From contig NC_014205.1 of assembly GCF_000092465.1 (NCBI RefSeq), positions 210,001-242,000 on the forward strand: a DNA stretch of 32,000 bases, written 5' to 3'. A model generated the notes under the pieces. The model searched no databases. It saw only the letters and a list, made by a program, of their open reading frames with translations, and was not told the origin of the DNA. Position 1 is the first letter of the stretch. Each line of letters opens with the position of its first letter. The stretch comes from Staphylothermus hellenicus DSM 12710. GTDB lineage: Archaea; Thermoproteota; Thermoprotei_A; Sulfolobales; Desulfurococcaceae. This document shows, piece after piece, positions 23,779 to 25,011 of this stretch. The translations under genes and the position numbers were made by a program.

Positions 23779-24904
23779 CTAGTAAATACGGTATCTTAGA
23801 ATTCCTACTAATCCTCCAAATGTTTTCTTAATCCATGCTCCCTCTGGGACATCGTCGCTTAGAAATACTGGTTTAGCACCATGTTTCTTTGCTAGTTCAG
23901 CCCATTGATGAGCATCTGGTCTGTCTTCATCTATTATTAGTGTTTTAATAGCGCTCATTTCGAGCGCTCTCTTAACATCCTCTTCACCATATATAATCAT
24001 TCCATCATCTTTTGCGAGATGAAGCTTGAATTCTTCTACAGCTTTTAATGCATCTACATATTCTTGTTCCTTTAATAGATCAGAGGCTTTCATAATCATT
24101 TCTCTCAAACCAACTTCTCCTTGATAACTTACATCTATAAGTCTTGGTAGAACAAGCTGTTTCAGCCTATAATCTAGATAGTCTCCTTCAATGAAATCAT
24201 ATTTACTATATGCTGGGCCACCAATAAGTATAGCTTTTAATTTACCTTGTTCAAGTAGAGGCAAGAATTTTTCTTTGGCGCGTTCCCCTACACGTTTATA
24301 GAAATCGTGAACCATTTGCTCAATTATTCTATCGAATCTTCGCTGGCTTTGCCCGCCTCTATGATGCTTTCCAGGTATGTAATCTTCTATCTCCTTTAAT
24401 ATTTCCAGCCTGCTTCCCTTCAATAATCCTAGAGTAGCAGCATCCCTCTCAATAATTATAAGGCCTACTAGGTTGTTTTCAATAACCATTTCTTCGAGGA
24501 ATTCTGTGTGGAAATGTTTATCTGTTCTATAGAAATAAACAGGTACTTTTTCTGGTGGAACAAACATTAAGCATATGAAGTCTCCTGTATCCATGTCTTC
24601 TCCACAAAATAATGCTAACCCGTTCTCAGGGATCTTTGGTATCTTGCTTAATCTCTCAATAGCAGCCTTTAATGCTCTTTGAACAGCTGATCTTGTCTTC
24701 TTTAATTTAATATTATCGGTAATTGAGAGTTCTTGTCGAAGCATATTTAATACATCACTAACAGGTCTACCTGGAGGAATATATAGGCTTAGGAGAACAG
24801 TAGCTGGAGCACTCCATTTTTTAAGTTCTTTAATTATTTCTCGAAGCTGTCTCCTATCAACATATAATGACTTAATTTTTTCCTCGCTATAGCTAAAAAC
24901 TCAT
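23779..24904 (-). CDS. prf1: Peptide chain release factor aRF1; N terminus reconstructed with a +1 frameshift after codon 3 (skipping nt 24895)
   Basis: GGQ motif HHRGGQSQRRF, NIK-type motif TDNIKLKKTR, typical aRF1 C domain. The conserved N domain (..[20 protein letters not shown]..) continues 50 codons upstream of the track Met (24744) with no ATG/GTG/TTG before the in-frame TGA. An ATG at 24904-24902, in the frame one nucleotide upstream of the conserved frame, reads ATG AGT TTT TAG. Identity is confident; the N-terminal model is tentative. Confidence 0.85.
24892..24901 (-). other. Candidate +1 recoding site AGU UUU UAG C (T5 run 24895-24899)
   Basis: tRNA-Phe on UUU can re-pair with UUU one nucleotide 3', placing AGC in the A site and entering the conserved aRF1 frame. 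TGAGG lies 6 nt upstream of the UUU codon. Confidence 0.4.
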
Positions 24905-24930
24905 CCCTCAACCCTCTCCTCACAAAATAG

Positions 24931-24939
24931 TTTTTATTA
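24931..24939 (-). promoter_or_regulatory. Possible TATA box (TAATAAAAA) for the aRF1 transcript
   Basis: The A/T box ends 26 nt upstream of ATG 24904, consistent with a leaderless or very short-leader archaeal mRNA starting at that ATG. Confidence 0.3.
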
Positions 24940-25011
24940 CATAGAGTATCCTACTGTGTTAAACATAAATAATGCTTTATATATTTGCTTCTTATCAGGG
25001 GACAGGGTATT

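Follow-up and report, generated by a model that had tools for sequence, protein, structure and literature searches.

Bacterial prfB encodes a class-I release factor and begins with a short 0-frame open reading frame (ORF) whose stop codon is one that this factor itself reads, the main ORF lying in the +1 frame; the last sense codon has the form YUU and the next base is U, which permits re-pairing of the tRNA in the P site, a C usually follows the stop, and a G-rich element lies upstream. The same features are found at the start of the gene for the archaeal release factor aRF1 in Staphylothermus hellenicus DSM 12710, within the stretch of 32,000 nucleotides (nt) analysed here (NC_014205.1, positions 210,001-242,000; hereafter the window, to whose own numbering all positions refer), as well as in many of its orthologues, and in the Sulfolobaceae the resemblance extends to a site, CTT TGA C, that is identical to the E. 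coli prfB shift heptamer. The aRF1 site differs in lying at codons 3-5, as against codon 26, and in having a tri- to pentapeptide as its 0-frame product; moreover, all three stops occur at aRF1 sites and UUU or AUU is as frequent in the P site as CUU, whereas the prfB stop is always the RF2-specific UGA (PMC3711429). On the strength of sequence comparison, the start of aRF1 probably carries a programmed +1 ribosomal frameshift of the 'shifty stop' type (probability roughly 0.85). This prfB-style reading had been put forward in an earlier note on the same DNA, and it is supported by 99-105 of 141 analysable loci, in which the short start-led frame, the stop and an N domain in +1 recur, down to sites with only three T's. 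The note had treated the site as a Staphylothermus case and thereby underestimated its scope, which spans Desulfurococcaceae, Ignisphaera and Sulfolobaceae; it is quite probable that an ancient, order-wide +1 frameshift controls aRF1 in these groups, model Saccharolobus and Sulfolobus relatives included, that it is the first conserved cellular +1 shift in Archaea, and that it has converged on the prfB loop down to CUU UGA C.

Of the same protein family as aRF1 (eRF1/aRF1) are the class-I release factor genes Mimivirus R726 and Megavirus mg280, where frameshifting at CUU UAG C and CUU UAA C, respectively, is supported experimentally (Jeudy et al. 2012, PMC3521657). The former sequence is also that of the Desulfurococcus site (CTT TAG C), and in both systems the stop varies among relatives. 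The viral genes additionally need readthrough of an upstream UGA, and their sites lie within a longer 5' region, whereas in aRF1 a single event would occur right after the start; the two-event recoding of the Mimiviridae type (UGA readthrough plus frameshift) is absent from the window aRF1, which has one interruption in the gene, a +1 frame running unbroken from 24894 to 23779, and no second in-frame stop. According to the viral study, archaeal and eukaryotic homologues lack regulation of this kind, a published statement that the aRF1 frameshift, if true, would overturn (PMC3521657).

If true, it would also mean that the NUU-U-stop arrangement arose in three unrelated settings, namely bacterial RF2, giant-virus eRF1-like genes and archaeal aRF1, which would be strong evidence for shifty-stop sensing of termination capacity as an evolutionary attractor, and the use of three stops here, as against UGA only in prfB, would amount to a natural test of the sensor logic. 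Other known +1 sites are UCC UGA U in antizyme (OAZ) and the shifty stops AAA UAA/UAG of Euplotes. Unlike aRF1, these are not in release factor genes, have other P-site codons, and respond to polyamines and to genome-wide weak termination, respectively. Within cellular archaeal genes, the only programmed frameshift shown experimentally is that of Saccharolobus solfataricus fucA1 (2021 archaeal recoding review, PMC8211752). Its host belongs to the same order of organisms; however, it is a -1 shift on A_AAA_AAT that involves no stop, occurs in a few strains only and has no known regulatory logic. That review and a 2016 frameshifting review (PMC5009743) contain only fucA1, Mg-chelatase candidates and haloviral cases, and the release-factor entries of the 2013 GeneTack survey are bacterial RF2 only. 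No prior description of an archaeal release-factor frameshift was found in targeted full-text searches, whose coverage excludes most subscription journals, so that absence is not proof; within the literature covered, the note's remark that none had been described holds good. A conserved cellular +1 frameshift would, if true, join a domain with one listed -1 case (PMC8211752, PMC5009743).

The aRF1 locus and its product

The relevant features all lie on the minus strand (Table 1). Reading that strand bears out the arrangement that the note had described, ATG AGT TTT TAG C at 24904-24892 with aRF1 continuing one base forward, and inspection of the ORFs likewise agrees with its claim that, after an in-frame TGA, the aRF1 frame offers no canonical start upstream of its first Met. 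The TGA stands at 24903-24901 and is followed by 53 codons without ATG, GTG or TTG, the first being ATG 24744 (Met54); 50 aRF1 residues are encoded between AGC (24894-24892) and that Met. The frame of the upstream ATG, for its part, contains many more stops beyond Met-Ser-Phe-stop. The A/T box noted 26 nt ahead of the ATG is present as well; its function as a TATA element is suggested by known archaeal promoter geometry. Joining MSF to SYSEEK gives, as anticipated, a protein of 374 amino acids (aa), a normal length for aRF1, that of Aeropyrum pernix having 373 aa. On its own the bare motif ATG-NNN-NTT-TAG (ATGNNNNTTTAG) would carry no weight in so AT-rich a window, where it is found twice as against 2.4 times expected by chance; the case therefore rests on context, that is, on a conserved frame without a start, and on conservation among orthologues.

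Table 1. Features of the aRF1 locus in the window
Feature	Position	Strand	Remarks
A/T-rich box TAATAAAAA	24931..24939	-	candidate archaeal TATA element; 26 nt gap to ATG; read from sequence
Spacer CTATTTTGT	between TAATAAAAA box and GAGGAGAGGG	-	read from sequence
G-rich Shine-Dalgarno-like element 1, GAGGAGAGGG	24912..24921	-	in orthologues GGTG, 7-11 nt ahead of the start codon
G-rich element 2, GAGGG	24905..24909	-	adjoins start codon, 6 nt 5' of shift codon; putative role
0-frame mini-ORF, ATG AGT TTT TAG (Met-Ser-Phe-stop)	24893..24904	-	ATG 24904-24902, TTT 24898-24896, TAG 24895-24893
Candidate shift site TTT_TAG_C	24892..24898	-	P-site UUU can re-pair with UUU at +1; UAG in A site
aRF1 coding frame, +1 relative to ATG	23779..24894	-	AGC TAT AGC ... 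to TAG 23781-23779; 371 codons
Proposed whole aRF1 gene	23779..24904	-	join(24904..24896, 24894..23779); 374 aa, MSF|SYSEEK...

The joined product is readily recognized as aRF1. It scores 447.6 bits on the NCBIfam model TIGR03676 aRF-1 (cut-off 234.7), aligns with A. pernix aRF1 (3agk, 373 aa) at E 1e-151 over residues 12-373 against 9-370, and carries both the GGQ motif (HRGGQSQRRF) and a NIKS-type motif (TDNIKLKK), each in invariant columns of the orthologue alignment. The window protein matched aRF1/eRF1 and pelota models only and showed no homology to bacterial RF1/RF2; the resemblance to prfB is one of mechanism, not of descent. That the gene might be a pseudogene, or be decaying in this strain, is suggested by the disruption of frame at its 5' end, which is typical of a fresh pseudogene. 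This explanation is vanishingly unlikely, since archaea have no class-I release factor besides aRF1, the remaining frame is intact and highly conserved (97 % identity to the closest relatives, besides the TIGR03676 score), and the 'disruption' is itself conserved across families.

Recurrence and conservation of the site

In total, 144 aRF1 loci were collected, including 44 from a scan of one genome per GTDB species, 80 from a metagenome scan and 19 fetched by way of proteins found in homology searches; three were not analysable, leaving 141. In the species scan, metagenome-assembled genomes of Staphylothermus sp. stood at 88-91 % aa identity. The site (a start codon, one to three codons, NTT, a stop, and aRF1 in +1) is unambiguous in 99 loci, which represent 81 distinct upstream regions; another six have the site plus an in-frame GTG or ATG within three codons of it, and 36 have an ordinary in-frame start. 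The distance from the site to the LLSLY motif is fixed at 26-33 codons. Position-wise counts were made on 85 distinct sites, to which the fractions below refer.

The closest relative of the window strain, whose protein is 97 % identical, has GAGGG ATG GGT TTT TAG C in two independent SRA assemblies, with the same run of five T's and the same stop. More distant lineages vary the theme, with ATG AGT CTT TAG C in Desulfurococcus mucosus, ATG AGC CTT TAG C in Desulfurococcus amylolyticus, ATG GGC/GGT TTT TAG C in the complete genomes of Thermogladius, and ATG TCT ATT TAG T in Ignisphaera; others have GTG-led ORFs with four sense codons, or five-codon ORFs that are ATG- or TTG-led. Within the Sulfolobaceae, Saccharolobus islandicus CP001731, Acidianus sp. 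HS-5 AP025245, Metallosphaera yellowstonensis and Sulfodiicoccus acidiphilus have ...AGGG ATG AGT CTT TGA C/G, with aRF1 going on in +1 as (F)DEYALNKQELK... and a TGA just upstream in the aRF1 frame, and a deep-branching metagenome locus (L120) with ATG AGC CTT TGA C was assigned to the same family. Isolate and complete genomes are among the carriers.

What is invariant in all this is neither the start codon (ATG 67, GTG 16, TTG 2) nor the number of sense codons in the 0-frame ORF (three in 72 sites, four in 11, five in 2), but the triplet T-T-T, to which the last sense codon contributes two bases and the stop its first; this triplet is present in 85/85 with an information content (IC) of 2.0, above that of the start codon and of every neighbouring position. 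The last sense codon, which would occupy the P site, is TTT in 43 sites, ATT in 27, CTT in 11 and GTT in 4, and re-pairing at +1 (NTT, then T) is possible in every one of the 85. The stop is TAG in 77, TGA in 7 and TAA in 1, the base after it is C in 61, and the codon ahead of the shift codon, mostly one for Ser or Gly, has a pyrimidine as its last base in 83. Exactly from the site onward, beginning with the AG of TAG, conservation turns to period 3 in the +1 frame, with synonymous variation directly after it in Tyr, Ser and Glu codons (TAT/TAC, AGC/AGT/TCT, GAG/GAA). The first +1 codon at the 77 TAG sites is AGY (Ser) in 75 and never TCN, its initial AG being imposed by overlap with that stop, and the next Ser position also shows TCT and ACN. 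Such a pattern is the mark of a nucleotide-level signal that overlaps translated sequence.

That each of the three stops occurs at the site would fit a sensor read by an omnipotent factor, and aRF1 does read all three stop codons. TAG, TAA and TGA each terminate ordinary long ORFs in the window and in related loci, so that none of them is reassigned. A reassignment of TAG was considered as well and rejected, because TAG ends ordinary long ORFs, including aRF1 itself, and because readthrough would leave the frame unmended. The C at the +4 position follows about 19 % of the natural stops of long ORFs versus 72 % of the stops at the site; a weak-terminator context is only suggestive, as the same base is the third position of a Ser or Asp codon.

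These data bear directly on the plain alternative that the earlier note had kept, a sequencing or assembly error in which the true run is four T's and the gene an ordinary ORF (ATG AGT TTT AGC). A run of five T's is a classic site for homopolymer miscalls, and the related metagenome contig L061 indeed departs here from its sister loci by a single T. For the window, nevertheless, an error of T5 for T4 is hardly credible, and is excluded by what the relatives contain: two independent assemblies of the 97 %-identical relative share T5 with TAG, around 100 loci from many projects and platforms, finished isolate genomes included, keep the 0-frame stop, and 42 of the distinct sites have three T's only (CTT TAG C, ATT TAG T, GTT TAG C, CTT TGA C), where a miscall is implausible. 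The length of the run is equally relevant to a shift at the level of RNA, whereby polymerase slippage on the T run, or editing, would yield an mRNA one U shorter. The window and 42 other distinct sites do have four or five T's, as TTT with a T ahead of it or as GTTTTT, and prokaryotes are known to show transcriptional slippage, on longer runs (PMC5009743); however, half of the sites, with their three T's (ATT TAG, CTT TGA), are too short for known slippage, and the conserved feature, NTT with a 0-frame stop, is one that matters to the ribosome and not to the polymerase. An RNA-level shift is accordingly very unlikely, and it would be the ribosome, rather than RNA polymerase, that changes frame.

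The alternative with somewhat more in its favour dispenses with a frameshift altogether, by taking the tripeptide to be a regulatory upstream ORF and letting aRF1 start at a non-canonical codon (GUU, AUA or AUU) or at an internal Met, Val or Leu, as a shorter protein. NCBI gene models do have ATA or ATT starts in two lineages, even though the DNA there reads GTG AGT CAT ATT TAG C and GTG TCG AGC ATT TAG C, and internal TTG, ATG or GTG starts elsewhere; besides, there are the six loci with a GTG or ATG in frame close to the site. Yet in the aRF1 frame TTT is preceded by a variety of codons (GTT, GTC, GTA, GCT, GCC, GCG, CTA, TTT), none of the 99 unambiguous loci having a canonical start there, and with such variation a conserved non-canonical start is not available. 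Internal starts are no better candidates, given that 32 of 85 distinct loci have no in-frame ATG, GTG or TTG between the site and the LLSLY motif, while in the remainder such codons are scattered at 10, 17, 18, 22, 24, 27 and other distances, in codons, before the motif; upstream, too, a stop is reached ahead of any in-frame start in 59 of 85. Initiation at Met54 in the window would remove a conserved helix and a conserved strand segment of 11 residues, and the S-Y-S-E-E that follows the site is conserved as protein, with synonymous changes, and hence is translated. Nor would a plain upstream ORF need an invariant TT-T before its stop. Expression of aRF1 without a frameshift is, on this evidence, unlikely. 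It is by comparison of sequences that the arrangement of the frames, the absence of another start and the lineage-wide succession of start, NUU and stop are established.

A neighbour-joining tree of 110 distinct proteins, built without resampling support, places the site in several deep clades, among them a Sulfolobaceae-like one, an Ignisphaera-like one, several others, and a large Desulfurococcaceae clade that includes the window. Sequences with plain starts form two clades, containing Pyrodictium/Pyrodictiaceae and Acidilobaceae-like members, respectively, and their N-termini are uniform (e.g. MSEELEKK..., MSSLEEK..., MSDLTAK...). The earlier note had held ordinary starts among orthologues to speak against a frameshift; such orthologues (Pyrodictiaceae/Acidilobaceae-like) do exist, but they form separate clades and are not relatives of the window. 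Outside the group, starts are ordinary in Infirmifilum (Thermofilaceae; ATG CGC GAA), in Pyrococcus abyssi (GGTGA, 5 nt, ATG ACG) and in one further clade with consistent M-D/E-K/R-E starts, the DNA-level sampling being one without Thermoproteales, Ignicoccus and Fervidicoccus. When a library clustered at 50 % identity was used, the whole site-bearing group fell into one cluster, and the other archaeal representatives had ordinary Met-led N-termini.

Proposed mechanism and accessory signals

Under the frameshift reading, translation would initiate at ATG 24904 and yield Met-Ser-Phe, after which the P site would hold peptidyl-tRNA-Phe paired with UUU and the A site would present UAG. From there the reaction could go one of two competing ways. 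Either aRF1 would bind and free a useless tripeptide, or the P-site tRNA would slip one base forward, from UUU to UUU, bringing AGC into the A site, where Ser-tRNA would be taken up and synthesis would run on to the 374-aa aRF1. In its general form, the scheme would have Met-X-(Phe/Ile/Leu/Val) made first, with the tRNA on NUU re-pairing on UUU and the +1 codon being AGY (Ser), or GAN in the UGA forms. Scarce aRF1 would lead to more aRF1 being made and abundant aRF1 to less, a feedback that is expected because the competing termination is catalysed by the gene's own product. As the 0-frame ORF is only three codons long, the site would easily have gone unnoticed.

Ahead of the start lies a G-rich motif of consensus GGTG-N2-3-GAGG(G/T), the second half of which adjoins the start codon and stands 6-7 nt 5' of the shift codon; GAGGG, GAGGT, AAGGG or TAGGG is found directly before the start in most of the 85 distinct sites, and positions -20 to -17 relative to the stop, corresponding to element 1, are conserved with an IC of 0.6-1.4. 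In the window, TT lies between GAGGAGAGGG (24921-24912) and GAGGG (24909-24905). If the crenarchaeal anti-Shine-Dalgarno (anti-SD) sequence is what we take it to be, AUCACCUCC, then the strongest peak of pairing potential falls at element 2 and a second peak at element 1. Similar G-rich motifs occur 5-8 nt before the starts of other window genes; element 2 has the spacing expected of an initiation SD sequence if the distance is counted to the shift codon, not to the ATG. The two five-codon ORFs, L111 (ATG GGG AGC ACT ATT TAG) and L119 (TTG GGG AGC GCT ATT TAG), have no G-rich element before their start and instead contain a GGGGAG run within the ORF, 4 nt from the shift codon, which hints that the position of the element is tied to the shift site and not to the start. 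The G-rich element may favour the shift by pairing with the 3' end of 16S rRNA at the time when the P site holds the shift codon, and GAGGG is a candidate for a frameshift stimulator, for a short 5' leader, or for both. With regard to the prfB-like SD geometry that had been suggested for the window, the upstream G-rich element is there, and a spacing of 6 nt for TGAGG proved slightly off, the GAGG core lying 7 nt and GAGGG 6 nt from TTT.

Further upstream, A-rich positions recur in orthologues about 28-36 nt before the start. Boxes of the TTTTTAAG type end 29-32 nt before the ATG in Sulfolobaceae, and TATA-like boxes overall do so at 26-32 nt; if promoter geometry is as usual in archaea, the leader predicted from this position is a short one of about 4-9 nt. 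A downstream stimulatory RNA structure was also sought and rejected, as RNAalifold gave 0 pairs and the fold of the window sequence was no better than that of its shuffles (z = 0.10).

Several observations weigh against the frameshift or against parts of it. We know of no experimentally studied precedent for a shift at codon 3, far earlier than codon 26 of prfB. Between the G-rich element and the shift codon there are 6-7 nt, as compared with 3 nt in E. coli prfB, and part of the element may lie outside the mRNA, given the short predicted leader. No conserved RNA structure was detected by RNAalifold among 37 orthologues (0 pairs). At six loci (L028, L137, L091, L117, L032 and L119) the cassette is accompanied by an in-frame GTG or ATG that could bypass the frameshift, an example being ATG AGT GTT TAG, where A-TGA-GTG-TTT-AG yields an in-frame GTG; these loci may be evolutionary intermediates between plain and frameshift-dependent starts. 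In L061, one extra T puts the ATG out of frame with the stop and breaks the pattern, and this T is either an assembly error or a real variant that requires a different shift. Finally, the tree fits one ancient origin with losses as well as repeated gains, and cannot tell the two apart. As to the sequence of L061 (Ga0065719_106579) itself, it reads ATG GGT CTT TTA GC about 30 nt before the start of the tblastn match, and the sister loci L058 and L127 read ATG AGT CTT TAG C.

Gene models, implications and genomic context

Predicted aRF1 products range from 297 to 397 aa, with either truncated N-termini or non-conserved extensions. Public aRF1 models in Sulfolobaceae and Desulfurococcaceae (compared at loci L130, i.e. 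S. islandicus CP001731, L131, L133, L143, L047, L049 and L135-L140) either lack part of the N-terminus, being 346-363 aa long with internal TTG, ATG or GTG starts, or begin at ATA or ATT, and in none is a frameshift encoded. If the frameshift is real, then aRF1 is mis-annotated in essentially all of these genomes, with N-termini that are short by 10-50 residues or with ATA/ATT starts, and recombinant aRF1 produced from such models may be without its true N-terminus. In a cryo-EM study of the Sulfolobus acidocaldarius ribosome (PMC10516650), recombinant aRF1 made from the annotated gene bound to the 50S subunit only, and domain I (the N domain) was without density; the deposited chain, 8hku, spans only residues that match 146-374 of the joined window protein. 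Since the site occurs in genetically tractable Sulfolobales, archaeal frameshifting, a shift at codon 3, and SD pairing on near-leaderless mRNAs would become directly testable.

An intergenic region of 80 nt (24905-24984) is common to aRF1 and a divergent gene of the Sua5/YciO/YrdC family (24985-25662, plus strand). Downstream of aRF1 lies a PhoU/TrkA_C gene (22453-23691, minus strand), and the gene order is the same in the closest relatives. Elsewhere in the window there are five Rfam tRNA matches, at 5-105 and 846-1011 on the plus strand and at 7336-7440, 7592-7676 and 10204-10270 on the minus strand. Four of the five are 85-166 nt long as against a model of 71 positions, which suggests intron-containing crenarchaeal tRNA genes, and one of the five was recognised by ARAGORN, as tRNA-Leu CAG at 7589-7676.

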